Source: a bacterium
GTDB taxonomy: Bacteria; Patescibacteriota; Minisyncoccia; UBA6257; GWB1-50-10
Reading direction: 5' to 3'
Length of the DNA stretch: 64,000 bases
NCBI GenBank assembly: GCA_002686365.1
Contig: NZBZ01000001.1
Span: 58,405-122,404, forward strand
The notes beneath the pieces are model-generated. The model was not told the origin of the DNA. It ran no database searches and saw only the letters and a program-made list of their open reading frames with translations. This document shows positions 1 through 64,000 of the stretch, in pieces. Every line of letters starts with the position of its first letter. Position 1 is the first letter of the stretch. A program made the translations under genes and the position numbers.

Positions 1-299
1 TATAAATTGGTTCTATTTTCATGACCATTCCCGGCCCTCCTCCGTATGGAGTGTCATCAACTGTCTTGTGTTTATCCTTTGCGAACTTTCTTGGGTCTAT
101 GGTTTTTATTTTTATAAGTTTCTTTTTTGCTGCTTTTCCAAGAATTGAAGTTTCAAGGTATGAGGAACATGCCTCTGGAAAGATTGAAATTATGGAAAAT
201 GTGATGCTTTTCTTTCTTAACATACTTTTATTGTATCAAATAGGCACAAACCTCCCCCAACATAACGTCGGGGGAGGCTTGCTTATTGAATAGATAAGT

Positions 300-590
300 C
301 TATTCCTCTTCTTCTTTTCTTGGAGCTCTGGTTCCGCCTTCTGGCTCTTCGATTTTCAGATTCACTCTTGCATTGCTTTTGATTCCAACAATGCGAAGAA
401 GTGTTCTGATTGCTTTTGCTGTTGAGCCTTGTCGACCAACCACCTGCCCCATATCTTGTGCGTTTACTTTGAGTGTCAGGAGCACCCCCATTTCATCTAT
501 CTTTCGTTCAGTCTGAACATCGTCTGGGTGATCTACGATAGACTTTACAATATACTCGAGAAATTCCTTATCAGCTATATTATCAGCCAT
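300..590 (-). CDS. KH-domain RNA-binding protein (YlqC/UPF0109-like)
   Basis: 96 aa with a GxxG-type KH core (VGRQGSTAKAIRTLL). It sits next to rpsP, as is typical for ylqC. A hairpin plus T-tract lies downstream at about 251-277. Confidence 0.6.
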   Translation of the reverse strand: MADNIADKEFLEYIVKSIVDHPDDVQTERKIDEMGVLLTLKVNAQDMGQVVGRQGSTAKAIRTLLRIVGIKSNARVNLKIEEPEGGTRAPRKEEEE

Positions 591-665
591 GTCTTTCTTT
601 GTGATTATCTAGTACATTTCTTCTACTCGACCTTTTCTGTTAATCAATCGCATCGATTACCTTAT

Positions 666-1115
666 TTATTCAGGCTTCTTTTCCTCAGTCTCTTTTTTTA
701 CTTCGTCTTTGGGCTCTTTGGCTGGAGTTTTATCTTCTTTTTTATCCTCGGTCTTCTCTTCTTTTATTTCATCTTTTTCCGGTGCCTCTTTTTTCCCTGC
801 CTGCGCAGGCAGGTGTTCACCTTTTTCATCCCCTGCTTTTTCTTTTTTCTTTTTGATATTATGTACTGCAATTTTTGGTCCCTTTACTACTCCTTGTTTT
901 ACAAGGAAGTTGTGGACCGTGTCTGTGGGTTTTGCTCCCCTCTCAATCCAGTGAAGTACTTTTTCTTTGTCTACTTCCTGAGTTTTCTCGTGTGGATTTG
1001 TCCACCCGAGGTCGTCTACAAATTTTCCTCCGAGCTTAGATCGTTTCTCCATGACTACGAGTCGGAGATATTTTTGGTGTTTTTTTCCTGTTTTTCTGAA
1101 TTTTATTCGTAACAT
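666..1115 (-). CDS. rpsP: 30S ribosomal protein S16 with Lys/Glu-rich C-terminal extension
   Basis: The N-terminus MLRIKFRKTGKKHQKYLRLVV matches the S16 family. The long KE-rich tail is CPR-like. Confidence 0.8.
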   Translation of the reverse strand: MLRIKFRKTGKKHQKYLRLVVMEKRSKLGGKFVDDLGWTNPHEKTQEVDKEKVLHWIERGAKPTDTVHNFLVKQGVVKGPKIAVHNIKKKKEKAGDEKGEHLPAQAGKKEAPEKDEIKEEKTEDKKEDKTPAKEPKDEVKKETEEKKPE

Positions 1116-1172
1116 GTGTTTGGTATTTAGGATGTTTACGTTTGCCTACGATAGTGGATATCTTTGAAAAAA

Positions 1173-3353
1173 TCAAGCACTAGCGACTTTTTCAGCGTCT
1201 TCCAGCCTTAGGGAGAGTACTTTAGATACTCCGTCTTCTCCCATGGTGATGCCATATAGAATTGAGGCTTTTTCCATAGTGATTTTGTTGTGTGTAACGA
1301 TGATAAATTGAGTTTTGTCTGAGAATTTGGATAGAAGTTCTGAAAATCTTCGCGCATTTTCATCATCGAGCGCTGCATCTATTTCATCAAGAACAAGAAA
1401 TGGCGGCGGGCTAATCGAAATAAGTGAGAAGAGCGCTGCCATTGATACTAGGCTTTTTTCTCCGCCAGAGAGCATGTCCAGATTTTTTATTTTCTTTCTC
1501 GGGATATTTATTTCAAAATCTACTCCTCTGGTGTCTTCCGAGTCTTTTTCGTTTTCTTTGTTTTCTTCCTGTACGGGAATATCTTCGTTTATTTCCTGAG
1601 ATTCTTTTGTGAGTTTGAGCTTTGCCCTTCCTCCTCCGAACATGAGCCCGAAGTATGTGTTAAATGCTTCGTTTATCTTTTTGAAGGAGTTTTTGAATTC
1701 GTTGTGGACTCTTGTTTCAAGGTCTTTAATTATTTCTTTTAGATCTCCTGAGGCTCGTTCGAGATCTTCCAGCTCTTTTGAGAGAAATTCATATCGTTCT
1801 TCTGTTTCTTTGGCTTCTCCTAAAAGTTCTTTGTCAATCTCTCCAATTGAAGCAAGCTCTGCCCTGAGCTTAAATATTCTTTTTTCCGCTTCTTTCCAGT
1901 CAATTTCTTCTGTCTCTTCTCTTTTTTCTGCGAGACGTTCCAGCTCTTCTTTAGTTCGTTCCAGAGATTCCCATTGTGTTTTTAGATCTTCTATTTTTAG
2001 CTGTAGTTTTTCTTTTTCGAATAGATTTTTCTGAAGTTGTGTTTCTAGGGCGCGAATGGCGTTTTTTTCATTTTCAATTTGCTCGAGTTGTTTTTTAAAC
2101 TCTTGATTTATTTTTTGCTGGTTTTCAATGAGGTTTTTTTCTTCCCCTCTTACTTTTTGAATTTTATTTTCTATGTTTTGAAGTTTTTCTCGGAGCTTTT
2201 CAGTAGATTCGGGTGTTTTTGACTCTTCTTTTTTCTCTTTTATATTAAAGATTTTCTCGAGTTTTTTTAGCCAGCCGAGCACCTTATCTTTTATGTTTTC
2301 TATGTCGTTTATTTTTGCTGTTTCCTTCAGCTCTTTTCGAAGCGTTTTCGCGTAGTCGATTAGCTCTTCTACAGAATATTCTTCTCTTAGATCTACTGAT
2401 TTTTGTATTTCCAGCTTTGTTTCAATTCTTACTATTTCTCTTTCTATCTCGGATTTTTCTTTAAGGAATTTTTCCAGATCTGATTCTTCAGAGTTTTCGA
2501 TTTTTTCGTAGTTCTGTTTTTCGAATGCTTTTAATGTTTCTTCAAGCTTTATTATGACCTGCTCCTGAGTTTTCTTTTTTGATTCTATCGGGGCTGCTGT
2601 TTTTTGTATTTTTTCTAGAGCGTTTTTGTATTTTTTAATGTGGAAGCCGAAGTATTTGTTTTCTAATTCTTTTCCTTCTTGCTCTATTTCAGTTCGTTTG
2701 TCCCAGCGGCGCCTCTGTCTTCTTAAAAATCTTAGGTGTGGTTTTATCTCATCTACCATTGCGGCAACCTTTTCCATATTTATTTTTGTTGTTTTGAGTT
2801 TTCTGTTTGCTTCGTTCTTTTTCAATCGGAATTCTTTTAGACCGAGAATTTCTTCTATCATTATTCGTCTCTCCTCTGGAGAGCTTTTTACAAATAGGTC
2901 GCTTTCGCCCTGACCAATGATAGTCATTCCTCTGGTGCCAAGACGCGCCCTTGCAAGAATGGGAGCTAGGTTTTTTAGCCGTATCTCGGCGCTATTTAGA
3001 GATATTTTTGAGCTTCCTGACTTGTCTACTTTTCGTTCGAGTGTTGCTTCTTCCGCATCTGCCGGAAAAATATTTTTTGTATTCCGGAAATGGAGCGCGA
3101 CGCGCGCCATGCTTGAGGCCGGTTTTTTGGGCGTGCCCGCAAAAATAAGATTGCCGATGGATTCTCCTCGGAGATTTTTTGCAGCTCGTTCTCCTAGCGC
3201 CCAGCGTAGGGCATCTACAATGTTTGATTTGCCGGAGCCGTTTGGACCGACAATCCCCACTATTTTTTCAGGGAGATTAAAGTCAGTTTTTTGCGCGAAG
3301 GATTTGAATCCTTGAATTTCTATCTTTTTTAGGAAGGTGGGCATGTGCGTCAA
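1173..3353 (-). CDS. smc: SMC-like chromosome segregation ATPase (short, 726 aa)
   Basis: The N-terminus has a Walker A (GPNGSGKSN). The C-terminus has the ABC signature LSGGEKSL and a Walker B LVLDEIDAALD. The middle is a long coiled coil. It is much shorter than canonical SMC and no obvious hinge is visible. Confidence 0.7.
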   Translation of the reverse strand: MTHMPTFLKKIEIQGFKSFAQKTDFNLPEKIVGIVGPNGSGKSNIVDALRWALGERAAKNLRGESIGNLIFAGTPKKPASSMARVALHFRNTKNIFPADAEEATLERKVDKSGSSKISLNSAEIRLKNLAPILARARLGTRGMTIIGQGESDLFVKSSPEERRIMIEEILGLKEFRLKKNEANRKLKTTKINMEKVAAMVDEIKPHLRFLRRQRRRWDKRTEIEQEGKELENKYFGFHIKKYKNALEKIQKTAAPIESKKKTQEQVIIKLEETLKAFEKQNYEKIENSEESDLEKFLKEKSEIEREIVRIETKLEIQKSVDLREEYSVEELIDYAKTLRKELKETAKINDIENIKDKVLGWLKKLEKIFNIKEKKEESKTPESTEKLREKLQNIENKIQKVRGEEKNLIENQQKINQEFKKQLEQIENEKNAIRALETQLQKNLFEKEKLQLKIEDLKTQWESLERTKEELERLAEKREETEEIDWKEAEKRIFKLRAELASIGEIDKELLGEAKETEERYEFLSKELEDLERASGDLKEIIKDLETRVHNEFKNSFKKINEAFNTYFGLMFGGGRAKLKLTKESQEINEDIPVQEENKENEKDSEDTRGVDFEINIPRKKIKNLDMLSGGEKSLVSMAALFSLISISPPPFLVLDEIDAALDDENARRFSELLSKFSDKTQFIIVTHNKITMEKASILYGITMGEDGVSKVLSLRLEDAEKVASA

Positions 3354-3361
3354 GGAATTGC

Positions 3362-4066
3362 TTACGCTTTCTTCTTCTCTACTTTTTTCAGGGCATTTAC
3401 TGCTGCATCTCGTTCAGCCTCTTGTTTTGAGAATCCTTTCCCTGTTTCAATTTTTTTGTTTCCGAAGAATACTGCGGCTATGAATTCTTTGTCATGATCA
3501 GGGCCTTCTTCTTGGAGGATTTTGTATGTTGGAGTGAGTTTTTGCCCCTCTTGGACTATTTCCTGAAGTTGGCTTTTCGCGTCTATGAATAGTTCTTTTT
3601 CCAGAACTTCTTCAAGCTGGTCCAGAATGTATTTTTTGATAAACTTTTCTGCTTTTGCGTAGTTTTGGTCTATATATATTGCGCCGATAAGGGCCTCTAC
3701 GGAGTTTGCAATGATTGCTTCTTTTGCTCGCCCCTCATCTTTTGCCTCGCCCCTTGAGAGGAGTATATATTTTTCAAGGCTTAGACTTTCCGCAACGTTT
3801 GAGAGCATCGTGTGATTTACGAGTGCTGCTCTGATGCTTGTAAGTTCTCCCTCCTGCTTTTCAGGGAATTTATTAAAGAGAAAGTCTGTTGTGACGAGTT
3901 CAAGTACTGCGTCTCCGAGATATTCCAAACGTTCGTTGTGAGGAAGAGCCCACTTTGTGTTTTCGTTCAAATAAGAACGATGAGTGAAGGCCTCTCGGAG
4001 GATGTCTTTGTTTTTGAACTTTATTTTTAGTTGTTTTTCGAGTTCTTCGAGTTTTGTTTCAGGCAC
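3362..4066 (-). CDS. rnc: ribonuclease III
   Basis: RNase III signature ERLEYLGDAVLEL, with a C-terminal dsRBD-like region. Confidence 0.9.
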   Translation of the reverse strand: MPETKLEELEKQLKIKFKNKDILREAFTHRSYLNENTKWALPHNERLEYLGDAVLELVTTDFLFNKFPEKQEGELTSIRAALVNHTMLSNVAESLSLEKYILLSRGEAKDEGRAKEAIIANSVEALIGAIYIDQNYAKAEKFIKKYILDQLEEVLEKELFIDAKSQLQEIVQEGQKLTPTYKILQEEGPDHDKEFIAAVFFGNKKIETGKGFSKQEAERDAAVNALKKVEKKKA

Positions 4067-5709: not shown

Positions 5710-5811
5710 GGAGTTATTGTATCACTCTTATAAAAAGAAAGAGGAGGCTTGTTGGGCCTCCTTATGGTGGGTTCACGAAGTCGTACTTCGTGAGGTTGTC
5801 AGCTAAATCAG

Positions 5812-6435
5812 CTACGCAGCGTGTCCCTCTTGGGCGAGGTTCTTTCCGTCCCAGCAGATTCGGAGGGAGTTGTGTGCACCTCCATGATCGTAATAGGGGG
5901 TGCTGAGTTTTGTCCCTTGGCGCATTTCGATCACTGTGACGCGAGTGGTTGTTCCGTCCATGTCGACGAAATACTCTGCAATGTCAGTAGTGGGTCGATT
6001 AGGGCGATCTACTCGCGGCTGTACAGGAACTCGTATGAGCACTAGCGCAGTTGAGTTTCGGTCTTCTGGGCTTTCGGGGCCGAGCGTTGGCGGCTCTCCG
6101 TTTCCTGATGGGAGAAGAGATGCTCGCGTGATCTCTATTGTCTCTGGTTCAAAACCAGTTACCCTCAGGCATGCCTCTGTGTCTCCGTGTGGAGATTCCA
6201 TGAGGGGTACGTGAAGCGTGCCATTTGTTCCAACAATGCACATTCCCTTTTGCACGCCTTGGGGTGTTGCTGTAAAGAGTAGCATTCTCACCTTTCGATC
6301 AGTGGCCCGTTCAGTTGTCGAAGATCTTGTGCTTCGTTCCAAGCACGCCAAATCATTATTGTACCAAATTTGGTGCGCTTGGAAAAAGGCGGGAGCTGTG
6401 CTTGGTGCTCCCGCGTGAGTCGTCGTAATGGTCAC
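5812..6435 (-). CDS. hypothetical protein (GC-rich island 1), immediately downstream of DAHP synthase
   Basis: 207-aa ORF with an ORF start 4 nt from the DAHP synthase stop. The composition is GC-rich and no family was recognised. GC-rich DNA inflates chance ORFs, so support is weak. Confidence 0.3.
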   Translation of the reverse strand: MTITTTHAGAPSTAPAFFQAHQIWYNNDLACLERSTRSSTTERATDRKVRMLLFTATPQGVQKGMCIVGTNGTLHVPLMESPHGDTEACLRVTGFEPETIEITRASLLPSGNGEPPTLGPESPEDRNSTALVLIRVPVQPRVDRPNRPTTDIAEYFVDMDGTTTRVTVIEMRQGTKLSTPYYDHGGAHNSLRICWDGKNLAQEGHAA

Positions 6436-6438
6436 GGA

Positions 6439-7635
6439 TTAGAGCTGCGCTGCTCTGTCTCCGCCGCCTTCTTCGAGGGTTCCTTTGCCGACGACCGTTT
6501 TGGCCCTTCCGAAGAGCCGTTCCCGGTCATCAGAGACTCGTTTCTCGTAGATCGGCTCGAGGGCCGCGGAAGGGACGTAGAGATGGGCGATGGTCTCGCG
6601 TAGTTTCCATACTTCCTTTGTGGCTTCGACGAGATTCCCTATCTGTTCAGGGAAGAGTGTTTGGAATCCGTCTGACTTGGCGACGAGCGGATTCGGGTGT
6701 GCCTCGACGAGCAGTACGGAGGCTCCTGCGAGGATGCCCGCGAGCGTCATTGGGTGAACCAGGTCACGGTTTCCTGTGCCGTGAGAGGCGTCGATTGCTG
6801 CGGGCAGATGAGTGAGTTGGTGGTGGAATGCGGCGATGGACCCGAGGTCGAGAGTGTTGCGCGTGTATTGAGAGGGTCCCGTTACTCCGCGCTCGCAGAG
6901 TATGATGTTCTCTTTGCCATTGATCATCATGCGTTCAACCCAGAGGAGGTAGTCCTCAGGATCGAGAGAGTTCCCTCTCTTGTGGATGACTGGCAGGTCG
7001 GTCCCTCGTAGCGCGTTCAGGAGTATGGTGTTGCGGCTGTTCGGCTCGCCGATCTGAAGGCAGTCCACGCCTGCGTCTTCATAGACGTTAATGAGGGAGG
7101 GGTCGAGGATTTCCACCACGACAGGCATTTGGTGTTCGCGTCCGGCTCTGACGATATACCGAAGTCCTTCGATGAGGTCATCGGTGGATTGTGCTCCAAT
7201 CCCTTCCCAGCCGCTGTATGGGCTGGAACGGTACTTGTGCACGCCGCCGCGGAGGACGTGCGCGCCAGCATCCTTCATAATGCGCGCCGCTTCCATCATC
7301 TGACGCTCGCTCTCGATGGAGCAGGGTCCGGCCACGACGACGAGGTCTCCACCGCCGATCGTTACGTTCCCGATTGGGAATGTTGAGTAGAATCGGTCGG
7401 TCCCCGTGCCTTTCTGCGTTGCGCGTTTGTAGGCGCGCGAGATGGAGATGATTTCCTCGACGCCTGGCATCTCGAAGATACGCCCGCGAGGGGCTTGGGA
7501 GACATCTCCGTAGACGCCTATCAGCGTGTGATCCTTGCCGGGCATCTTTCCAGTTTCGAACTCGAGCTCTCTGAGTAGTCTTTCCACGGCGCTGATCTGG
7601 GCCCTGGTTGCTCCTTGTCGCATCTTGACGATCAT
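6439..7635 (-). CDS. 3-deoxy-7-phosphoheptulonate (DAHP) synthase, type I-beta with N-terminal ferredoxin-like regulatory domain
   Basis: The core VVAGPCSIESERQ...VLRGG...KYRSSPYS...ILCERG...IDASHG aligns with Thermotoga/Bacillus-type KDO8P/DAHP synthases. An extra N-terminal domain of about 80 aa is present. Confidence 0.85.
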   Translation of the reverse strand: MIVKMRQGATRAQISAVERLLRELEFETGKMPGKDHTLIGVYGDVSQAPRGRIFEMPGVEEIISISRAYKRATQKGTGTDRFYSTFPIGNVTIGGGDLVVVAGPCSIESERQMMEAARIMKDAGAHVLRGGVHKYRSSPYSGWEGIGAQSTDDLIEGLRYIVRAGREHQMPVVVEILDPSLINVYEDAGVDCLQIGEPNSRNTILLNALRGTDLPVIHKRGNSLDPEDYLLWVERMMINGKENIILCERGVTGPSQYTRNTLDLGSIAAFHHQLTHLPAAIDASHGTGNRDLVHPMTLAGILAGASVLLVEAHPNPLVAKSDGFQTLFPEQIGNLVEATKEVWKLRETIAHLYVPSAALEPIYEKRVSDDRERLFGRAKTVVGKGTLEEGGGDRAAQL

Positions 7636-7828
7636 TCTTCGTCTCCCTCTCTGTCGTCTGACTCTGAATCAGGATGATGAGTGCAGTTGTCTTGGTTGCT
7701 CGGGTGGTCTGCTCGTTCTGGGTCCTGCCTCGGAGTTCTGGGTAGATGAAGAGTCTGCTTCTTGTCATGTCCTATGGGCAGCAACATTCTTGTGCGTGTC
7801 GTCGCCATGATTTTTCCTCTCGCTATTC

Positions 7829-8170
7829 CTATTTGATCTGGAAGGGCTTTCCAATGAAGCCGCAGCCTTGTCCTCGGCAGGAGCGTCTGCTTTGGCCGTC
7901 TCTTGTGGTGATTTCTATCAGTTTTTCTTCACCACATTTTGGGCAGGAGCCCTCTTCCCAGTCTATTCCAAGGTGTATGCTCATGGGATCTGGTCTTGTC
8001 TCGCGGTACTTACTCAGGAAGGGCATGACTTTCTTTCCGTGTCCGTGACGTGTTTGCAGCAGAATCAGGCCGATGTTTGCTGCGTTGTAAGGTGCAATTT
8101 GGCCTGAAAGTTGAGTGTTTTTTACAAAATACCCAATTTTCAAGTCAAAGATTTTGCGTTGTCCGCGCAC
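7829..8170 (-). CDS. hypothetical zinc-ribbon protein
   Basis: The C-terminal CPKCG...C-x2-GC motif looks like a zinc ribbon. The N-terminal part is AT-richer and the start is uncertain. A bidirectional hairpin terminator lies at about 8178-8203. Confidence 0.3.
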   Translation of the reverse strand: MRGQRKIFDLKIGYFVKNTQLSGQIAPYNAANIGLILLQTRHGHGKKVMPFLSKYRETRPDPMSIHLGIDWEEGSCPKCGEEKLIEITTRDGQSRRSCRGQGCGFIGKPFQIK

Positions 8171-8402
8171 TAAAACAAAACGCCCCTTGGCTAGGGGGTT
8201 TTCTTTAAACTATGTGTTTATTTTAGCTTTTCGCTTCTGAAAACCACCTAACCCTTGGAGGGCATAAAGAAAAATCCAAAGAAAAAGGTGTTTTGCGGTG
8301 ATTTCATGATTGATTGCATTTTTGCAGGTTTATGGTTTTTTGTCAAATAAAAAAAGAGCCTTTAACGGAAGGCTCTTGCGTGTAGATTAGTGTTGGTGGG
8401 TG

Positions 8403-8624
8403 TTAGCCGCCGAGCTGCATTATCGTAGCGGGGATAGCTCTTGTCCCCAGTATTCGAAGTTCGCGTGTCAGGGTTTGGCGGAGTTCGTCGTCGCTTGTAG
8501 CCCTCTGTAGCCTTCGCTCAAGCGTTGCTTGTTGGGTAAGCTGGTCGTGAAACCTTCTTTCCAACTTAGCCCGATGTGTGGCGAGGTCTGGGTGAACGAG
8601 TTCTCCAGGAAGGTCGGCGGTCAT
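8403..8624 (-). CDS. small hypothetical protein (73 aa) ending in Gly-Gly, translationally coupled to upstream gene
   Basis: Its start codon overlaps the stop of the 8624-9196 ORF. The C-terminus is ...IMQLGG. An intrinsic terminator hairpin lies just downstream at about 8345-8372. Confidence 0.35.
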   Translation of the reverse strand: MTADLPGELVHPDLATHRAKLERRFHDQLTQQATLERRLQRATSDDELRQTLTRELRILGTRAIPATIMQLGG

Positions 8625-9196
8625 TACTCGCTCTCCTCGTCTGGTTCGCCTAGGGCCTTGTTTAGGCCGTCTACGAATGCGAAGAAGAAGGCTTCGGTCG
8701 TGTTGCGGCTTTCGCCGACGCCAGTTACTTCCTCGTCGTTCACTTGGAGTGGCAGTTCGACTCTTCCCGTTGCTGCTGTTTTGTCTTCGTCCGTGGCTGT
8801 TGTTGCTTCGTCTCCATTCATGATGTGCACTGGGATTTCATCTCCGATGAGCTGTAGATCTGTTCCAGTTGCTTTCTGGATAGCTTTGGCGATGGCGTTC
8901 CAGGGTCCTTCTCCAGTCGATGCTTCTACGTGTTTGTCACCGTCGATGTCGATGACTACGTTGGCCGTTGTTGTGACGCTGTTTCTTGGTCCTTCTGCTG
9001 CGTCTCTGTCTGCATCAGGCTTTGTTCCCGTGATGCACAGGAAGCTGTGTGCTTTATACTTCGGCATCGGTTGTCCTTTCCGGACATGTGATGTCTTCTT
9101 GTACACCGGTCTATACATTGAAGACGTTTTCGATGAACGTATTGCTTTTCCGGAAAGTAGATATTTCTTCTGAATTATCCACTTTCCGAGGCACAA
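8624..9196 (-). CDS. standalone LeuA-allosteric(dimer)-domain-like acidic protein
   Basis: The segment VVIDIDGDKHVEASTGEGPWNAIAKAIQKATG...VELPLQVNDEEVTGVGESRNTTEAFFFAFVDGLNKAL resembles the C-terminal regulatory domain of 2-isopropylmalate synthase (GNGPVDA-type). It is very acidic. The true start is probably internal (MPKYKAH near 9067). Confidence 0.45.
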   Translation of the reverse strand: MCLGKWIIQKKYLLSGKAIRSSKTSSMYRPVYKKTSHVRKGQPMPKYKAHSFLCITGTKPDADRDAAEGPRNSVTTTANVVIDIDGDKHVEASTGEGPWNAIAKAIQKATGTDLQLIGDEIPVHIMNGDEATTATDEDKTAATGRVELPLQVNDEEVTGVGESRNTTEAFFFAFVDGLNKALGEPDEESE

Positions 9197-9532
9197 TTTG
9201 TGTGTATAAAAAATACCCTTTGGTTAGGGTATTTTGCAAGTTTTTGTAATCGTATTAACTCAAAACGCCCTAACCGTGGGATTCTGTAAGGAGGAGGTTA
9301 AGAAGAAGTCCGTTTTGATATAGCACAACTGCTTTTTGCATGTTGAGTATATTTTATTGGTGGTTTGGTGTTTTGTCAACTCCGTTAGAGCTTGTCTTTT
9401 TGCCGAAAGCGAAACGAACTTAGGGACAAGCTCTAACGGGGTCAATTTTTAGGCTGTGGATAAAGAAAATGCCTCCGAGGGGTTGCCTGGAGGCGTGATG
9501 TGAGGATGATGATTCCTCGGTTCGTGGTTGTG

Positions 9533-10042
9533 TCAGTCTGGACAGCGAAGATCGTCTGCGCGATGTGTTTCTGCGACTTCGTCGAGCATTCCGTCGCATT
9601 CTTTCTGTATCCTGCGCGCGGCGCAGCATGCACCTGCTTGCCAGTTTAGAAGCTCGTTGTCGCTTGGCCGTTTTCGACGTACCAGTATGTGTTTGCGGGC
9701 GTTTTGGGCCCATTCCGGCGCGTTTTCCTTCGCGTATCGTTCTGTCCGGCACCATCTTCCCCAATCACTGAGTGATCCATTGGAGAAGACTGCGACATTC
9801 CACATTCGGTCCGTTGGCCCCTCGATGTCGGAGAGTAATTGTACAGCGCGTCCTCTGTTTTCCAGCTCACGGACGAAGTCGACTGCCGCGCGATCCTCTT
9901 CTCGAGCTACGAAGACGACTGGCACGTTTTCGCGCTTACGCTGGTCTGGGGGGTTGGATCTGTATGCAGGGAATTCTTCGCACGGCCAGTCTGGATCGGG
10001 TATGTCTTCGTGGTCGGGATTGTGTTCTGCGGTGGTGTTCAC
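9533..10042 (-). CDS. hypothetical protein, possible TIR/flavodoxin-like fold
   Basis: The stretch VVFVAREEDRAAVDFVRELENRGRAVQLL fits a beta-alpha-beta start like TIR-like domains, which is only suggestive. It lies in a GC-rich island. Confidence 0.25.
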   Translation of the reverse strand: MNTTAEHNPDHEDIPDPDWPCEEFPAYRSNPPDQRKRENVPVVFVAREEDRAAVDFVRELENRGRAVQLLSDIEGPTDRMWNVAVFSNGSLSDWGRWCRTERYAKENAPEWAQNARKHILVRRKRPSDNELLNWQAGACCAARRIQKECDGMLDEVAETHRADDLRCPD

Positions 10043-10074
10043 ACACGGATTCCTTTGTTGGGAGGGGTTGGGGC

Positions 10075-10320
10075 TCAGGAGGCGAAGACGACGTCTTGAG
10101 TTACATAGAAGTCGGTGATGGGATCGAGTGCTGGTTTGCTGACCTTTTTCGGCCTAGGCGGTCTGGCCTCTGGCAGGCCCATTTCACGCCTTAGGGCATG
10201 CCAGCGTTCCCTGAGGCCACGCCTCTTTTTGGGGTCGAGTCCCATCCTCTCAAGCTGTTTTGTGATCCACGCGAGTTCTTCCTTGGGCGTTATCTTGCGC
10301 TCGGCTCCTGTATTAGTCAC
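10075..10320 (-). CDS. small basic hypothetical protein
   Basis: 81-aa Arg/Lys-rich ORF in a GC-rich island. Support is weak. Confidence 0.2.
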   Translation of the reverse strand: MTNTGAERKITPKEELAWITKQLERMGLDPKKRRGLRERWHALRREMGLPEARPPRPKKVSKPALDPITDFYVTQDVVFAS

Positions 10321-10722
10321 TCTCTTCCTCCTGTTCTGGTGACAGACATTTCTTGGTATCTGAACCGCTCGTCTTGTCGCGAGGAAGGTCGGAATGTCTT
10401 TCGCCCTGTGCTCGGGAGAATTGGCAGTGTTCTCCGTTTGGGTTTTGTAAAGAGCGTTGGTTTCTGTCTACGTTCGGCACTTTGTCACGTTGACCAGGTG
10501 CCAAGTTAAACAAAAACGCCTCCCGATTGGGAGGTCTGCAGCATTATTTATTATGTTTAAGCTATATATGCAAAACTCCCAACCGTTTGAAGGTCTTCTT
10601 TTCTATCTTGATGACAATAAGACAGAGAGTTTTTTGCATTTGTTTTATTTTAATATTTTTTGTTTTTTTGTCAATTTTCTGCCTGTGGATAAGAGTTAGG
10701 GACAAGGTTTTTGTGTGTGTGC

Positions 10723-10772
10723 ATTTATGTACACTCTTAATGCGACCGCATCATGAGTGTACATATGTAATT
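10723..10772. repeat. TGTACAC palindromic repeat, copy A
   Basis: ATTTATGTACACTC-ttaatgcgaccgcatcat-GAGTGTACATATG. Confidence 0.5.
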
Positions 10773-10773
10773 T

Positions 10774-10805
10774 AAAAAAAGCACGCCTTTGCGGGGGCGT
10801 GCGTG
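10774..10805 (-). terminator. intrinsic terminator
   Basis: GCACGCC-loop-GGCGTGC stem, followed by a T7 run on the minus strand. Confidence 0.65.
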
Positions 10806-10834
10806 TGATGTAGCCTCTTTTGTGCTGCTTGGTT

Positions 10835-11035
10835 TTATCGCTGCCTTTCTAGCCTTCTCCTTTCTTTAGGCATTAGAGTGCTTTCTAGCTTTCTTAGTCG
10901 ATCTCTTCGCTTTGCGATTTCGTGCTGAGACATGTTCTCGCGTATCTGGGGGGTTTCCAGCTTACGGCGAAGAGATTCTGCTTCGACTTCGTAATTGTCG
11001 AGGCGGCGTTGAGTTAGGTCTAAGTGGGTTTCCAC
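10835..11035 (-). CDS. small coiled-coil hypothetical protein
   Basis: 66 aa, charged and helical. A clean intrinsic terminator follows immediately on the minus strand at 10774-10805. Confidence 0.3.
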   Translation of the reverse strand: METHLDLTQRRLDNYEVEAESLRRKLETPQIRENMSQHEIAKRRDRLRKLESTLMPKERRRLERQR

Positions 11036-11362
11036 AGCGATGTTCCCTGTTATTGTGTCGCATTTCGAGTCAGGAATGCGACTGGTTGAGAATGTGCGAA
11101 ATGACTGCTTTTGACCCGAACGCTGATCATTGTCTTGAGCAGTGTTCGAATTAAAAACGCCCCTTGCTGGGGGTTTTGAGTTCTTGTGTTATTTATTTAG
11201 ATGCTCAAAATCTCCAGCAGAAGGGTTGTGATGGTGCCGGCATTGCTGGAACAACTAGTGTGATGAGAGTTTTTAATTTCATTGTTAATCTTATTTTAGC
11301 CTTATCTTTTTTCTTGTCAATTATGACATGTGGATAGAGTTGAATTATAATGGTGGTGACTT

Positions 11363-24993: not shown

Positions 24994-26556
24994 CTAGTCG
25001 GTTGCTTGTTCCCCTTGGGAAGGGTGCAGGGCAGCCTTGATCGCTGCTTCTTCTGCCTCCTCCAGAAGACTGGTGAGTCTCTGAGAGCATGCTATTGCGA
25101 TGCGGAGTCGACCAACCCTCTCTTCCGGACTTTCGGCTTCAGCGTCCTGCCAGCGCGACTCGATGCTTCGAAGTAATTCGAGTGCTGGATCGTCAGACGT
25201 TTGTTGTTCGGTCGTCGGCTCATCAGATGGGGCGTCTGCAGGCGGCGCAGTCTCTTGGTCGAAGGGTCCGATGATCCAAATCTGCGGTCCAGTTGGATCT
25301 ACTCGGACTTGCCTTACGACTCCTCGTGCTTCGAGGTCTCCTCCCCTTCTTTTGGCTGTCGGCTCAGTGTATTTCGTGAGTGCTTCGATGGCTTCCCATG
25401 GAATGGACTGTAGGCGCAGCCATCCGTCTTTGAGGCCAACTTGGACAATCGTGTCCTTCTGAAGAAGAAGATCGTGGATCTCTGCTAGCGTGAATCCACT
25501 GCCTCTCAGATGACTCTCTTGGACGTGACCGTGAAAGTCGGCGAGCGTACCGTATTCTGTCTTGTGACGGGGACAGATGATTGCTGGCTCACTGGTTGGG
25601 GCTGGGTCTTGGTCGTTACCTCCTGCGTGGTCTGCGTCGTGTTCGGGCGCGTCATCGTCGGGGCTGATGACGGTGATTGTGTCGCCGTGGTCTTCGATCC
25701 TTCCATCTCCTGCGAGTGAGGAAAGGTAGGCCTCTTCCGCGTTGTTGTCTTCAGCTGTATCTCCTAGTGCGTCCTGCAGCCAAGTAGAGATTGTTCGGAT
25801 CGCAGCTTCACGAGAGATTTGTCCGTTGCTGTCAGCAAGATCAAGAAGGACTCTGTGGGCGTCTTCGAGGGTCAGGCTGCTGCTGTCGTCGGTTTCGACT
25901 TCATCTGCGGCCGCTGATTCGCTTCTGGGTCCTCTTGCGGTAGTCGTCCCGGCTCCTTGGGTGGATCCTTGTGTCTCGGATGCCTCACGTCTTCTTCGTG
26001 TGGGTCTTCCTGTCTCGTGATGTCCGTGCGAAGCCTGCGTAGTCGTCCCACCACTTTCAGGTGGTTCAGTGATGATCCAGACAGGTTCTTCCTCTCGAAT
26101 GGCTCCTGTGTTGATCAGGGCGGTTTCTATGCCTAGCCCGTTCGAGCCTGGCATGGCCTCCAGGAAACTCGCGGGGCGAATTTCCATCTGACGCGTCACG
26201 TCTCCAGCATTCACCTGGTTAGCATTGTTCCAGAGTAGCACGTGCGCGCGTCTCTGCGCCTCTGCGGTCTGCACGGCACTTGCTTCGTCTCTTGCCATTA
26301 GTTCGCTCCTTCCCGCTGTTTCGGCGGGAGGCTGTTCCTTACGTGATGTTGGGAGTGCAAGACGGGGGCTTGGCTCGAGATCTTCAGTCTGTACAGTTAT
26401 CTCTTGCCTTGATGCTCTTCGTCGGTGGATCGCGAGTTTTCGCTCTCTGGGCCTAGTGATGGAAAACTCTCCGGGCCCATCGATGCTCATCAGGTGGTTT
26501 TGGATGAGTTGGAGCGTTGCATCTCCTGCTTCTTCTTCAGAAATCTCTAGTTGCAT
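24994..26556 (-). CDS. hypothetical acidic protein (GC-rich island 4)
   Basis: 520 aa, Asp/Glu/Thr-rich, with a CPRHK...HGHVQESH Cys/His cluster. No family was recognised. Confidence 0.35.
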   Translation of the reverse strand: MQLEISEEEAGDATLQLIQNHLMSIDGPGEFSITRPRERKLAIHRRRASRQEITVQTEDLEPSPRLALPTSRKEQPPAETAGRSELMARDEASAVQTAEAQRRAHVLLWNNANQVNAGDVTRQMEIRPASFLEAMPGSNGLGIETALINTGAIREEEPVWIITEPPESGGTTTQASHGHHETGRPTRRRREASETQGSTQGAGTTTARGPRSESAAADEVETDDSSSLTLEDAHRVLLDLADSNGQISREAAIRTISTWLQDALGDTAEDNNAEEAYLSSLAGDGRIEDHGDTITVISPDDDAPEHDADHAGGNDQDPAPTSEPAIICPRHKTEYGTLADFHGHVQESHLRGSGFTLAEIHDLLLQKDTIVQVGLKDGWLRLQSIPWEAIEALTKYTEPTAKRRGGDLEARGVVRQVRVDPTGPQIWIIGPFDQETAPPADAPSDEPTTEQQTSDDPALELLRSIESRWQDAEAESPEERVGRLRIAIACSQRLTSLLEEAEEAAIKAALHPSQGEQATD

Positions 26557-26822: not shown

Positions 26823-26828
26823 TAGTAG

Positions 26829-26913
26829 TGCGCGGGAGAGGACTTGAACCTCCACGTCCCTAGGGGACAATAGCCCCTCAAGCTATAGCGTCTACCAATT
26901 CCGCCACCCGCGC
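26829..26913 (-). tRNA. tRNA-Leu (anticodon GAG)
   Basis: Cloverleaf has acceptor GCGCGGG/CCCGCGC, a D-arm GGCGGAATTGGTAGACGC typical of tRNA-Leu, anticodon loop TTGAGGG, a long variable arm and a T-arm GGTTCAAGTCC. Confidence 0.85.
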
Positions 26914-27576
26914 ATTATTTTCTTTGTCTATTTTAAGTATTCTTTGGGTTTTAGCAACTTTTCTTAAGAGACAAGGAATTTTTTCTTTATAATATATTCT
27001 TTTTATAAGTTTTTTGCTTTCAGTTTTTGCAAACTCTAACATCCATGCTCTCGTTGCGACTTTTACACCTCCCTTAATGGAGCTTTGTTTTTCTATCTTT
27101 TTTTGTAGCCACTTTAGAAATTCTGGGCTCGCTGATATGAATCTGATGTAAAACATATAACTGCTTCTCCACCTTTTGTCCCAGTACGAGTATATGCACC
27201 CATCTCCGTCAAAACACCCTCGTAAAAAATCGAAAAAATAATTATCAGGTATTTTTAGCTCTCCCAGTGTTTTCGATTTATTCGGAGTCATTCCGATGCT
27301 TACGAGCCAGCTATAGAATAATACGTTACTTATTTGGGTGCGGTGGTAGATATTTTTATTGTTATGACTACTTATTTTTCTGCTAATTTTTAGCCCTTCT
27401 ATTCCTAGACATTTTTGGAATGTTTTTATTAGCTCTTTGTCTTTTGAGGTAAAATCGATGTGACGCTTGTCTTTTGAAAGACAGCCATCGGTTGCTATGA
27501 GTCCAACTGCATATGCAAGTTCTGCTGACCAGTTAGTAGAAATTTTTTTCTTGGGCTTGGGTCCCCTTTTCCCCAT
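26878..27576 (-). CDS. LAGLIDADG homing endonuclease (free-standing, double-motif)
   Basis: Two LAGLIDADG motifs: LAYAVGLIATDGCL and FLRGCFDGDGCI. The last 12 codons overlap the 5' half of tRNA-Leu. Confidence 0.8.
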   Translation of the reverse strand: MGKRGPKPKKKISTNWSAELAYAVGLIATDGCLSKDKRHIDFTSKDKELIKTFQKCLGIEGLKISRKISSHNNKNIYHRTQISNVLFYSWLVSIGMTPNKSKTLGELKIPDNYFFDFLRGCFDGDGCIYSYWDKRWRSSYMFYIRFISASPEFLKWLQKKIEKQSSIKGGVKVATRAWMLEFAKTESKKLIKRIYYKEKIPCLLRKVAKTQRILKIDKENNARVAELVDAIA

Positions 27577-29416: not shown

Positions 29417-30565
29417 TCAGACAGTCTTGTTGAATTCGTGATCAGGAGATGCTGTCAGACGGAGGCTTGCTCTCAACCTCCTTTTTGGGTCTGCCTCTCT
29501 CCAGCTTCGTATCGCTCTCTCCGCTGCCTGCAGGGCTTTGCCGAACGTGTTCTCTGTGAGCTCGAGGTTGATGGTCACAGTGACGTTCGCCGTACCAGGC
29601 TCTGTGTAGCCAACTTCGACTACGAGCTCGCTGCCTACATTGGCAAGCTCAGAGACGCTCAAGATCGAATCTCTGAGCAGATCCTTCAATGTCCTAATTG
29701 CCCTGTCGAACGCTGCCACGCGTTCTGTTGTGGCTGTTGCGACTTGGAAGGCGAGTGTGGAGCGCCCCGCAAGCGGACTCGTGATTCGAAGCCCTTGAGC
29801 GAACTCGTGGACAGATTGGTTTCTCGCCCAGGCGATCGCGAGGATGCACGCGATCTCCTCGTTGTCTTTGTCGCACTTTTCTTGATCCGCGATGATCTGG
29901 TGGTGTTCAGCGAGGCGCGGGACAGGAAATCCTTGCCTGGTCGCAGTTCGTATTGCGCCCAGCCAAACCGAGCGGTCGAGTCCTTGTAGCGTGGGAAAGC
30001 TCAGAATGTGGTCGAAGAAGATCCCGACGGCCTCTTCACCATCTTCGGTGTTGCGCCAACGCTCGGTTACGAGCTCGAGAAGTCGCGTTCTTGTCTTGGG
30101 GAGCGCCACGACTCTCGTTGTTCGGTTTGGTCGTTCTGAGTCAGAACATCCGCTCTCTGAGGCTTGTTGGATCGCAACCTCCCTGGTTCCAGGAGCGTCA
30201 AAGAGGAGTTGGAGGAGGTATCTTGTGAGAGGCTCCCACGCGATGTCCTCTGCCGTCTCCGTTGCTTCGTTGTCCAGACGGAAGGGCGTTCCTTCTCCGC
30301 GGAAGGGCATTTCTCCGTCTTCCTCGCGTAGATGAGGGTAGATGGCCCTCTCTAGAGAAGCCTGGATGAACCATTCGAGGAGTTGGAGGGCGTCGGCATC
30401 TTTTGCCTCACGAATGGTCTCGCGGAGCAGTTCGAGGAGCTCTTTTTTCCTGTCGTCTGGGCGGATTCTTTGGAGCCACGCGTGTGAGACCAATCCGCCT
30501 TCTTTTCGCACTCGATCCAGAAATAGGACGTAGGGCGTACCTTCGGGCCTACCTTCGCTCGACAT
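29417..30565 (-). CDS. hypothetical protein (GC-rich island 5)
   Basis: 382-aa ORF, GC-rich, no recognised family. A nested perfect palindrome lies upstream at 30698-30756. Confidence 0.35.
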   Translation of the reverse strand: MSSEGRPEGTPYVLFLDRVRKEGGLVSHAWLQRIRPDDRKKELLELLRETIREAKDADALQLLEWFIQASLERAIYPHLREEDGEMPFRGEGTPFRLDNEATETAEDIAWEPLTRYLLQLLFDAPGTREVAIQQASESGCSDSERPNRTTRVVALPKTRTRLLELVTERWRNTEDGEEAVGIFFDHILSFPTLQGLDRSVWLGAIRTATRQGFPVPRLAEHHQIIADQEKCDKDNEEIACILAIAWARNQSVHEFAQGLRITSPLAGRSTLAFQVATATTERVAAFDRAIRTLKDLLRDSILSVSELANVGSELVVEVGYTEPGTANVTVTINLELTENTFGKALQAAERAIRSWREADPKRRLRASLRLTASPDHEFNKTV

Positions 30566-30778: not shown

Positions 30779-31357
30779 TTACGTGTTCCGCATTCTTATC
30801 ATCAGGGTAAGAATGCTGTGCAGGATTGTGTGGCTTACTGGGTAGACGTATTCTTGCCACGGATCTTGTCCGCGCAATCTGACTACTGCAATGTTCAAAA
30901 GGTGTGACAGGGTCCAAATCGCCCATGGGCCCTGTTTCTCCTGAATAGATTCTCTCCACACACCTTTGTATGTTGGGAGAAATGCAATGGTCCTGCAGCC
31001 TATCATTATGAAGTTTGCGTATGCTGCGCTCTTGTATCTTGCCCATACATATATAGCAAGAGCGCTTATTATGATTACTGCCCAGTCTTGCCAGTTTATT
31101 CTTGCGATTCTTCCCTTGCGGAGTGCAACCAGAAAGATAATGAGGGTTTGAATTGCGCCCAGTATGGATGGGACACTTTTTGCTACATCCCTTGTGAGCA
31201 CGAAGTAACTTACTCCGATTATCCATGTTGCCACAACCCAGACCATCCAGGTTGCGGGATTTAGATCAACAGACCCTTTTCTTATGTTCCTTATATAGAG
31301 AAGGAATCCCAAGAGAGCTGCTGTTCCAGTAGCCACTGATAGCACTATAGCTGCCAC
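30779..31357 (-). CDS. polytopic membrane protein, unknown function
   Basis: About 6 hydrophobic segments and AT-rich backbone composition. Confidence 0.45.
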   Translation of the reverse strand: MAAIVLSVATGTAALLGFLLYIRNIRKGSVDLNPATWMVWVVATWIIGVSYFVLTRDVAKSVPSILGAIQTLIIFLVALRKGRIARINWQDWAVIIISALAIYVWARYKSAAYANFIMIGCRTIAFLPTYKGVWRESIQEKQGPWAIWTLSHLLNIAVVRLRGQDPWQEYVYPVSHTILHSILTLMIRMRNT

Positions 31358-31488: not shown

Positions 31489-31560
31489 GGGCACATAGTT
31501 CAGTGGTAGAACGCTATCCTGATAAGATAGAGGTCCCAGGTTCGATCCCTGGTGTGCCCA
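31489..31560 (+). tRNA. tRNA-Ile (anticodon GAT)
   Basis: Acceptor GGGCACA/TGTGCCC, anticodon loop CTGATAA, T-arm CCAGGTTCGATCCCTGG. Confidence 0.85.
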
Positions 31561-31564
31561 CAGG

Positions 31565-31641
31565 GGGCCTGTAGCTCAGTTGGCTAGAGCGCCTCGTTTG
31601 CAACGAGGAGGTCGTCGGTTCGATTCCGATCAGGTCCACCA
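31565..31641 (+). tRNA. tRNA-Ala (anticodon TGC), CCA encoded
   Basis: Acceptor GGGCCTG with a G3-U70 pair, the Ala identity element. Anticodon loop TTTGCAA, T-arm GTCGGTTCGATTCCGAT, then ACCA. Confidence 0.85.
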
Positions 31642-63912: not shown

Positions 63913-64000
63913 GCGAAGAGGAGCAAGAGCAGGAAGATTGCTATTGAGATTGCAAACATTGTGAGTGTTGTTTTTATGAGTTTTGCGAAAAATCCCCTCC

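Follow-up and report, generated by a model that had tools for sequence, protein, structure and literature searches.

The product of Escherichia coli pheL carries an FFFxFFF pattern. Attenuators of this type, described for pheL–pheA and pheST of Gammaproteobacteria (RF01859; PMC3082878), combine a short open reading frame (ORF) containing a run of Phe codons with mutually exclusive 2:3 and 3:4 helices and an intrinsic terminator, the stop codon of the ORF letting the terminating ribosome mask region 2. The same features are seen in W4, one of four leader modules in a 64-kb stretch of the bacterial contig NZBZ01000001.1 (the whole stretch of 64,000 nucleotides is referred to below as the window), where W4 heads a unit that contains a gene for a type I-beta 3-deoxy-7-phosphoheptulonate (DAHP) synthase, DAHPS. 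The best reading of this locus, and a rather probable one, is that a horizontally acquired DAHPS gene stands under Phe-sensing, ribosome-mediated attenuation. W4 differs from the pheL leaders in having no significant sequence or covariance-model similarity to them (20 bits, with a gathering threshold of 55); in its predicted leaderless or near-leaderless message without a Shine–Dalgarno (SD) sequence; in the controlled gene, which is DAHPS and not pheA; in its host, a member of the candidate phyla radiation (CPR); and in being one of a family of paralogous leaders with different codon runs within a single island.

The leuL and ilvL leaders and the leader ORFs of actinobacterial leuA (PMC1262725) share with several of our modules a leader peptide placed before a terminator; here, W3 and the leader of a related locus, L088, are Leu-rich, and the leaders L006-A, L006-B, and L161 of further relatives are Ile/Val-rich. 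The gene downstream of the leader is leuA in L161, whereas W3 of the window precedes a LeuA regulatory domain only. In actinobacteria, the LEU element works by a pseudoknot in which the SD sequence is sequestered, and has no terminator switch (PMC1262725).

Leader modules between rnhB and dnaE

Four units on the minus strand of the island between rnhB and dnaE each contain a promoter, a leader ORF, an antiterminator, and an intrinsic terminator (Table 1). On the minus strand of the 7-kb region, the sigma-70 matches with the four highest scores (10–11 of 12 positions; at 11320, 10674, 9379, and 8346) all lie in AT-rich spacers, just upstream of an ATG. This ATG follows the −10 hexamer by 7–10 nt in the four window leaders (6–12 nt across all 11 leaders), hence, the predicted messages should be leaderless or nearly so; the leader ORFs have 19–25 codons.

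The four elements, W1–W4, align with each other and fold much more stably than shuffled controls, with z-scores from −2.95 (W4) to −4.56. In each element, region 2 either overlaps the leader stop codon or follows it, and can pair with the terminator's 5′ arm; in the alignment, this 2:3 (antiterminator) helix of 14 pairs is 90.6% paired with four compensatory pairs, compared to 26–58% in slid controls; the compensatory changes are exemplified by UGCUGG/CCAGCA, GGUUGGGAG/CUCCCAAUC, and GGUUAGGG/CCCUAACC. In constrained folds, a ribosome footprint at the stop codon leaves the terminator in all four modules, while a footprint on the codon run, or a 3′ arm not yet transcribed, yields the antiterminator instead. 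The terminator scan called the hairpins of W2 and W4 on the gene strand and listed those of W1 and W3 on the opposite strand only; the latter have the order A-run, hairpin, T-run, and can also be read as terminators on the gene strand.

A scan for seven-codon stretches with at least six identical residues covered the window in all six frames. On the minus strand of the 64 kb it gave a single Phe run, FFFGFFF of W4, and a single Leu run, LLLNLLL of W3; the former is in frame in the leader before the DAHPS unit, and the latter in the leader before the ORF with the LeuA domain. In both leaders the last codon of the run is 18 nt from the stop. The W4 leader has at least five Phe codons, at least two of them adjacent, in frame within 60 nt, i.e., the properties by which pheL leaders have been searched for (PMC3082878).

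Rfam searches at gathering thresholds returned tRNAs only. Below threshold, a single cis-regulatory Rfam family, Phe_leader, turns up in the island, its matches coinciding exactly with W2 and W4; by these scores the window leaders are analogues of the Phe_leader family, not members of it. A covariance model, R1, built from the switch core of the four window leaders, finds only the four island copies in the window. The other GC-rich blocks of ORFans in the window were considered as further sites of the same leader design, and both the covariance model and direct reading were negative there. The model also has no match in the two DAHPS loci of the Poribacteria-like subfamily that were searched (L003 and L004).

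Among 165 other Parcubacteria and homologue loci, R1 has matches in the closest relatives alone; all of these lie in the rnhB–dnaE gap and share one strand. The leaders of L088 and L161 occupy the same position as W1, beside dnaE, while L006 has an island of its own with four homologous leaders and wholly different cargo. The seven homologous leaders of the relatives follow the same switch logic; among the peptides of the relatives' leaders are MVKNLIFVMVVVNSII.., ..TTIISIIIET.., MISILFTSMAIMLVILVIV.., and ..MILSLVLML... In L161, the leader is followed by a leuA N-terminus (NF002991, E = 4.6e-104; 2-isopropylmalate synthase), with the contig ending inside the gene, which suggests that the LeuA-domain ORF of the window is a remnant of such a gene. 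A search of L161 for a tRNA-like element with ARAGORN gave no match. Every annotatable cargo ORF belongs to amino-acid metabolism: DAHPS, LeuA (twice), and ArgE/DapE (twice). Since the leaders share one scaffold but carry different, cargo-appropriate runs, we infer that the module was duplicated and retuned within the lineage, and not imported with each gene.

The leaders might instead be real elements that do not sense amino acids, either switches bound by a protein or another ligand, or small genes for hydrophobic peptides, the F and L runs then reflecting hydrophobic composition. Several leaders are plain hydrophobic mixes, e.g., W1 and L161 (MISILFTSMAIMLVILVIV); the leader peptides of L006-D and L086 are conserved as peptides without runs; and the DnaA-box-like TTATCCACA beside a −35 hexamer suggests additional, protein-mediated control. 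Nevertheless, we find this explanation distinctly unlikely. Single-residue runs (six F of seven, six L of seven, five I of six, and VVV plus two more V) are a signature of attenuator leaders and not of membrane peptides; the run residue agrees with the cargo (Phe before DAHPS, Leu before the LeuA regulatory domain, and I/L/V before leuA in L161); and the stop codon is inside region 2, at the fixed distance of 18 nt from the last run codon.

Several further motifs accompany the promoters. Perfect DnaA-box 9-mers, TTATCCACA, are seen upstream of promoter elements at 9455–9463 and 10684–10692 (minus strand), with variants at 11324–11332; such 9-mers are also found in L086, L087, and L006 (around 3505). 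The box at W2 is 9 nt upstream of the −35 hexamer, and that at W3 is 9 nt upstream of a TTGAC preceding the promoter. The 10-mer TTATCCACAG, with at most one mismatch, has 8 copies in the window versus 2.9 expected. The DnaA-box motifs could serve a further layer of control over the units, exerted by a protein, or could be a landmark for recombination. At 9379–9442 (minus strand), an inverted repeat of 18 bp (94% complementary, with a 28-nt loop) separates an ATCCACA-N9-TTGACC element from the W3 promoter, and a similar arrangement is present upstream of the leader L006-D (L006, about 3440–3500).

Table 1. Predicted features of the island and of homologous leader loci (window coordinates unless a relative is named; leader peptides end at a stop codon)
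Feature	Coordinates	Strand	Details
Whole inserted island	5710..11362		between rnhB start (5709) and dnaE start (11363)
W1, control region of unit 1, adjoining dnaE	11148..11322	-	promoter, antiterminator, terminator 11159-11174; z=-3.73
W1 leader ORF	11205-11282	-	MKLKTLITLVVPAMPAPSQPFCWRF
Unit 1 cargo	10781..11035	-	orf66 (10835-11035) and terminator (10781-10802)
W2, control region of unit 2	10508..10676	-	promoter, antiterminator, terminator 10519-10534; z=-4.56
W2 leader ORF	10562-10639	-	MQKTLCLIVIKIEKKTFKRLGVLHI
Unit 2 cargo	9533..10320	-	orf81 (10075-10320) and orf169 (9533-10042); GC-rich ORFans
W3, control region of unit 3	9200..9381	-	promoter TTGACA-17-TAAAAT, antiterminator, terminator 9210-9235; z=-3.87
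W3 leader ORF	9270-9341	-	MQKAVVLYQNGLLLNLLLTESHG
Stand-alone LeuA allosteric (dimerisation) domain ORF	8624..9196	-	PF08502; 164-190 aa by start chosen
orf73, second ORF of unit 3	8403..8624	-	followed by terminator 8354-8377
W4 promoter (unit 4, DAHPS unit)	8318..8346	-	TTGACA-17-AAAAAT, extended TG, 10/12
W4 leader ORF	8248..8307	-	MKSPQNTFFFGFFFMPSKG; six Phe codons within seven (8266-8286); ATG 10 nt after -10
W4 switch	8172..8253	-	region 2 GGUUAGG.GGUUUUC overlaps leader stop, pairs with 5′ arm of terminator
W4 terminator	8183-8197	-	CCCCUAGCCAAGGGG, then U-run; terminator scan
orf113, first ORF after W4 attenuator	7829..8170	-	ORF list; weak Zn_ribbon_IS1595 match, E=0.01
orf58, coding status uncertain	7632..7808	-	stop overlaps DAHPS start (ATGA)
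DAHP synthase, type I-beta, 398 aa	6439..7635	-	Pfam, NCBIfam, PDB alignment, subfamily alignment
orf157, all-beta conserved protein, last gene of unit 4	5812..6285	-	homologue alignment, ribosome-binding site, AlphaFold2 model
Intrinsic terminator ending DAHPS unit	5742..5762	-	AGGAGGCCCAACAAGCCTCCT, then CTTTCTTTTT; 33 nt before rnhB start codon
L006 (DnaE 72% identical), contig CAYXNB010000015.1	2707-8835		four leader copies inside its own 6.1-kb rnhB-dnaE gap
L006-A leader			MVKNLIFVMVVVNSIIPPQR; Val-rich
L006-B leader			MYQKNTTIISIIIETSEGREFLA; Ile-rich
L006-C leader			MKFAPKISTQKSQLLFSMYLTPHR; no run; heads 459-aa ORFan and two tandem ArgE/DapE-family M20 deacylases
L088 (DnaE 69% identical)			one leader copy
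L088 leader			MKKFRATSMILSLVLMLPSNG; Leu-rich
L161 (Hainich groundwater contig, DnaE 74% identical)	1-1530		one leader copy
L161 leader			MISILFTSMAIMLVILVIVKSLRLGVLKA; I/L/V-rich; then long-form leuA N-terminus

The DAHP synthase and its foreign origin

The protein of 398 aa has two Pfam domains: PF18152 (DAHP_snth_FXD) at residues 1–66 (E = 8e-14; 51.6 bits, gathering threshold 27) and PF00793 (DAHP_synth_1) at residues 90–343 (E = 5e-46; 157.2 bits, gathering threshold 25.5). The Thermotoga maritima DAHPS (1RZM) aligns to residues 1–341 with E = 2e-53, and the top NCBIfam models are all 3-deoxy-7-phosphoheptulonate synthase; models of KDO8P (3-deoxy-D-manno-octulosonate 8-phosphate) synthase score about 80 bits, far below the DAHPS models. 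The first-pass annotation, made from the sequence alone, had named the enzyme and an extra N-terminal ferredoxin-like domain, and had proposed the PF00793 search as a check; both are borne out. These matches identify the protein as a DAHPS of type I-beta whose N-terminus forms a ferredoxin-like regulatory domain; in T. maritima DAHPS, this domain is the site of feedback inhibition by Tyr and Phe.

The window protein shares with the T. maritima enzyme (1RZM/3PG9) the two-domain architecture, the Cys/His/Glu/Asp metal ligands (C105, H285, E311, and D322, matching C102, H272, E298, and D309 of T. maritima), and the KxR..SPYS, KRG, ERG, and SDG motifs, although the identity is only ~36%. It retains every column that is invariant in the nine-sequence alignment A1 of its subfamily and T. 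maritima. Window protein and subfamily together differ from T. maritima by having KYRSSPYSGWEG as the counterpart of KPRTSPYSFQG (alignment A1), DASHGTG versus DPSHSGG, a 7-residue insert, and a C-terminal extension of ~35 residues (LYVPS..YE.RV..DR.RFFG); a tail of 22 residues beyond this extension is peculiar to the window protein. The ATG is preceded by the SD sequence GAGGGAG. Nothing points to decay of the gene, which by its sequence does not appear to be a pseudogene; the enzyme is probably metal-dependent and active.

Relatives of the protein number 5822 in a large protein database, with the best identity about 70%. The best 120 of these are 63–73% identical over 94–95% of the query, and nearly all of them have 375–380 aa and the same two Pfam domains; named sequences among the best relatives are from Poribacteria, Thermodesulfobacteriota, and Binatia. 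The window protein has all the signatures of this ~376-aa FXD-DAHPS subfamily (e.g., P0003, P0010, and P0015) and nests inside its clade. In the neighbour-joining tree of the 60 best matches, rooted on T. maritima, the window protein pairs with P0006, inside a clade holding all three Poribacteria-labelled sequences, and does not nest among CPR sequences. The contigs of the closest homologues have a GC content of 0.59–0.68 and non-CPR neighbours (Tricorn-like PD40 proteins, ABC transporters, and WD40 arrays). Generally, the subfamily genes sit in large GC-rich genomes with unrelated housekeeping neighbours, whereas the window gene is found in a CPR genome behind a Phe leader.

The composition of the gene is deviant as well: GC is 0.586 and GC at third codon positions (GC3) is 0.684, versus 0.38–0.43 and 0.25–0.41, respectively, in flanking backbone genes (for GC3: rnhB, rpmF, nusB, rnc, smc, and dnaE); the window as a whole has 43.5% GC. 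The flanking genes are typical of Parcubacteria, viz. those for SMC, RNase III, NusB, L32, and RNase HII on one side, then dnaE, a class-II aminoacyl-tRNA synthetase gene, and miaA. For the DnaE of 1061 aa, the best 80 loci in species-representative genomes show 55–72% identity, and the informative titles among them are almost all Jorgensenbacteria, Wolfebacteria, Harrisonbacteria, Paceibacterota/Parcubacteria, or Patescibacteria; relatives on metagenome contigs belong to the same CPR groups. The backbone is clearly assigned to Parcubacteria, close to Jorgensenbacteria, and acquisition of the DAHPS gene from a GC-rich, Poribacteria-like donor is well supported by tree and composition. The earlier suggestions of a GC-rich island, a CPR backbone, and an imported gene thus agree with the composition, the DnaE relatives, and the phylogeny obtained here.

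The rnhB–dnaE gap is 5653 bp in the window, compared to a median of 158 bp in 50 Parcubacteria relatives, where the two genes are divergent neighbours, and tblastn against the loci of 80 relatives gave no match for any of the nine island ORFs. Along the island, GC-rich ORF blocks alternate with AT-rich spacers. By this synteny, the island is an insertion in a marine Jorgensenbacteria-like Parcubacterium, placed between rnhB and dnaE, which are normally adjacent and divergent. It combines the usual marks of a genomic island, being inserted relative to relatives of the same synteny, deviant in composition, and incongruent in phylogeny. No Pfam match to an integrase or transposase is seen in the island (only a weak IS1595 zinc-ribbon match, E = 0.01), and no convincing flanking direct repeats or att sites are seen at its borders.

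The sharp change of GC at the cargo ORFs, and the non-CPR nearest relatives of the DAHPS, might be expected if a GC-rich fragment had been joined to a CPR contig in assembly or binning. However, a Tara scaffold of 132.9 kb and a MEGAHIT contig of 52 kb have identical island sequences, and in a third assembly a NODE contig of 34 kb matches with 99.995% identity over dnaE and the first two units of the island; three contigs are on record with exactly this DAHPS protein. Since three assemblies, made by different assemblers, agree, and relatives carry homologous leaders at the same rnhB–dnaE locus, a chimera is very unlikely, indeed next to negligible; the GC-rich ORFs are, moreover, interleaved four times with AT-rich control modules, and CPR genes lie on both sides of the island within one contig.

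A phage or defence origin of the island was rejected, as none of its eight other ORFs had a match in PHROGs or PADLOC, and DAHPS had only a distant one, to PHROG 5045; IMG/VR contains no close DAHPS (at most 41% identity) and no relative of orf157. Phage-borne DAHPS/KDO8PS-like genes (PHROG 5045; IMG/VR) resemble the window gene in being lone DAHPS-family genes outside a pathway context, but the viral copies are at most 41% identical to the window protein, and none belongs to the ~376-aa subfamily. In IMG/VR, 74 viral contigs (L171–L244) encode DAHPS/KDO8PS-family proteins with 22–42% identity, three of which align over the N-terminal FXD region; hence, lone DAHPS-family genes are fairly common as viral auxiliary genes. 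Integron cassette arrays share with the island the tandem, unrelated foreign ORFs, the structured repeats between them, and the variation of cargo among relatives; an integron was rejected as well, as each unit has its own promoter, no integrase was found in the island, and the polarity of the repeats (GTT...AAC, with U-run ends) is opposite to that of attC (RYYYAAC...GTTRRRY).

Predicted regulation and the role of the lone enzyme

If W4 acts as an attenuator, transcription would start at its promoter. With ample charged tRNA-Phe, the ribosome would reach the UAG within GGUUAGG and mask region 2; the terminator at 8183–8197 would then form, and transcription would end about 135 nt from the start. 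With scarce tRNA-Phe, the ribosome would stall on FFFGFFF, leaving region 2 free to form the antiterminator, and RNA polymerase would read the possible zinc-ribbon ORF, orf58, DAHPS, and orf157, and stop at 5742–5762. Unit 3, with its LeuA regulatory domain, would respond to Leu in a like manner through LLLNLLL. The synthase would condense phosphoenolpyruvate (PEP) and erythrose-4-phosphate (E4P), subject to feedback by Tyr and Phe via the FXD domain, as established for the T. maritima enzyme.

None of the shikimate families (aroB, aroD/Q, aroE, aroK, aroA, and aroC) is found among the Pfam-annotated called genes of the contig from ~928 to 78,027 (~77 kb of the 133-kb contig, including the whole window), in agreement with the first-pass annotation, which had seen no other aro genes nearby. 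CPR genomes are generally depleted in amino-acid modules, the shikimate module included (PMC13597930).

Several points weigh against Phe-responsive attenuation of an acquired DAHPS. At the level of the leaders, only W3 and W4 have an obvious run, W1 and W2 being ambiguous, without a clear single-residue run, and the leaders L006-C, L006-D, and L086 also have no residue run; the covariation rests on four sequences; and the Phe_leader matches of W4 (20.2 bits, E = 8) and W2 (22.9 bits, E = 2) are not significant at the gathering threshold of 55. Downstream of the W4 terminator, 535 nt with two doubtful ORFs precede the DAHPS start, and co-transcription follows only from the lack of a predicted terminator between W4 and DAHPS. 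The LeuA ORF is without a catalytic domain, a hint of decay of the island, and with no second aro gene in the ~77 kb, Phe-responsive induction of a lone first enzyme would have no obvious pay-off. As for the enzyme, its scores are under the curated NCBIfam cut-offs (291.6 vs 335 for NF006421; 225.4 vs 267.75 for TIGR01361), and its substrate-site motifs, KYRSS for KPRTS and QIGEPNSRN for QIGARNAQN, depart from those of characterised I-beta enzymes. In KYRSS the Lys and Arg are kept, and in QIGEPNSRN the Arg is shifted by three positions, both variants being common to the whole ~376-aa subfamily. Due to these differences, synthesis of DAHP by the protein is rated as very likely, and not higher.

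Alternatively, the island could be decaying, the DAHPS being a recent import that is intact but physiologically orphaned in a hot spot of gene gain and loss, and the codon runs being relics or without purpose. The LeuA ORF keeps only the regulatory domain, while leuA of L161 has the catalytic N-terminus; neither a further aro gene nor a leu gene is seen in the ~77 kb; the cargo is entirely different between close relatives; and GC3 of the DAHPS is not ameliorated. As the truncation of LeuA in unit 3 shows that cargo can decay, an orphaned DAHPS remains conceivable. We consider it unlikely, however, since the DAHPS keeps all invariant residues and a good SD sequence; all four leaders have intact promoters, ORFs, both helices, and compensatory changes; and one scaffold with different, cargo-matched runs implies selection after duplication of the module.

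The first-pass annotation had also proposed that the lone enzyme has a non-canonical role or is an imported fragment. The latter part stands, given the nesting with Poribacteria, the foreign GC3, and the insertion, while a non-canonical role is not indicated. Such a role, be it in sensing Phe and Tyr, in slowing growth by draining PEP and E4P, or in providing a host cell with DAHP, would fit with the isolated occurrence of a first-committed enzyme that has an allosteric domain, with the presence in the next unit of another feedback sensor by itself, the LeuA regulatory domain, and with the general lack of amino-acid pathways in CPR genomes (PMC13597930). Yet nothing positive backs such a role, the fully conserved catalytic site does not indicate a pure sensor, and the enzyme is known to be alone only within the ~77 kb of contig covered, so that we give this idea very little probability. 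The leader with Phe codons ties predicted expression to the supply of Phe-tRNA and, hence, points to a conventional link with aromatic amino-acid supply, and not to unrelated moonlighting.

CPR bacteria (Patescibacteria) are regarded as amino-acid auxotrophs with minimal regulation. Extending Phe-sensing attenuation of DAHPS to the other units gives a broader, tentative picture, which is possible but on the doubtful side: this lineage of Parcubacteria would maintain at rnhB–dnaE a modular platform for foreign genes, in which a duplicated scaffold, with sensor codons retuned to Phe, Leu, Ile, or Val, stands before captured genes whose products, DAHPS, LeuA, and ArgE/DapE, are feedback-regulated enzymes that act at the entry to an amino-acid pathway or late in it. 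An auxotrophic episymbiont would thus gain an amino-acid-specific starvation regulon, and lone first-committed enzymes could supplement or circumvent steps under feedback inhibition in a pathway that the host shares or completes.

The class of mechanism is well known; what would be new is an array of paralogous leader-peptide attenuators with cognate runs before imported amino-acid genes in CPR. Our search of the literature found no publication linking either leader-peptide attenuation or DAHP synthase with CPR. If the attenuators work, CPR cells sense how far individual tRNAs are charged and respond through particular metabolic genes of horizontal origin; classic attenuation operates on leaderless messages in an ultra-small bacterium; and one scaffold can be adapted to sense different amino acids. 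The covariance model and the locus provide a handle on the response of CPR to shortage of specific amino acids, which bears on host dependence.

Accompanying reading frames and other features

The first-pass annotation had placed a coupled gene of 207 aa 4 nt after the DAHPS stop. The frame of 207 codons (5812–6435) is indeed open, but it is the longest possible ORF, with a GTG start at 6435 lacking a ribosome-binding site, and gene callers give 157, 143, or 176 aa; thus, the open frame is confirmed and a gene of that length is not. A HMMER search of 1.84 billion representatives yielded two real homologues (P0127 and P0128; 151 and 154 aa, 48% identity), aligned from residue 51; two further matches were rejected as spurious matches to repeat proteins. 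As the homologues start at residue 51, Met51 (ATG at 6285) is preceded by AAGGTGA, and the GTG has no ribosome-binding site, the start assigned here is Met51. By this assignment, the real gene, orf157, is separated from the DAHPS stop by 153 nt, and the apparent coupling at 4 nt arises from choosing the longest frame. Neither of the contigs with homologues (1.1 and 1.6 kb) contains a DAHPS, hence, no conserved partnership of orf157 and DAHPS is seen; both show the same promoter–leader–terminator design. The structure prediction suggested earlier for this partner gave, from three sequences, an all-beta AlphaFold2 model (pLDDT 68, pTM 0.69), which matched no solved fold in the PDB (best E = 0.3).

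Of the two ORFs between W4 and DAHPS, orf113 was not called by Prodigal in L001; its region more likely encodes a zinc-ribbon protein of 65 aa (CPxC...CxxxxC) from an ATG at 8026, with the coding reality uncertain. No homologue was found for orf58; a 66-aa ORF upstream of a Poribacteria DAHPS was considered as its counterpart and rejected, being in the same position but not homologous. The LeuA-domain ORF matches PF08502 with E = 1.4e-13, and NCBIfam LeuA at C-terminal positions only; it has no close homologues in a word-index search and no PDB sequence match, and may be what is left of a full leuA.

No rRNA gene was detected in the whole window. An adjacent pair of tRNA-Ile(GAT) and tRNA-Ala(UGC) is present at 31489–31641 (plus strand); such a pair is usual in the 16S–23S spacer. 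An ORF of 232 aa resembling LAGLIDADG_3 homing endonucleases (26878–27576, minus strand) overlaps the 5′ part of the tRNA-Leu(GAG) gene at 26828–26913.

Further GC-rich blocks (up to 64% GC) are seen at 24994–26556, 29417–30565, 30779–31357, and 37912–38895, with ORFs of 520, 382, 192, and 327 aa, respectively, that have no Pfam match; they have no leader element in front, and may be other foreign insertions. On the contig beyond window position 64000 (L170, 627–10004), nine consecutive ORFs of 125–584 aa have no Pfam family except for one PDDEXK_3; this large uncharacterised block of the same genome adjoins an ORFan of 512 aa at window positions 62000–63538.

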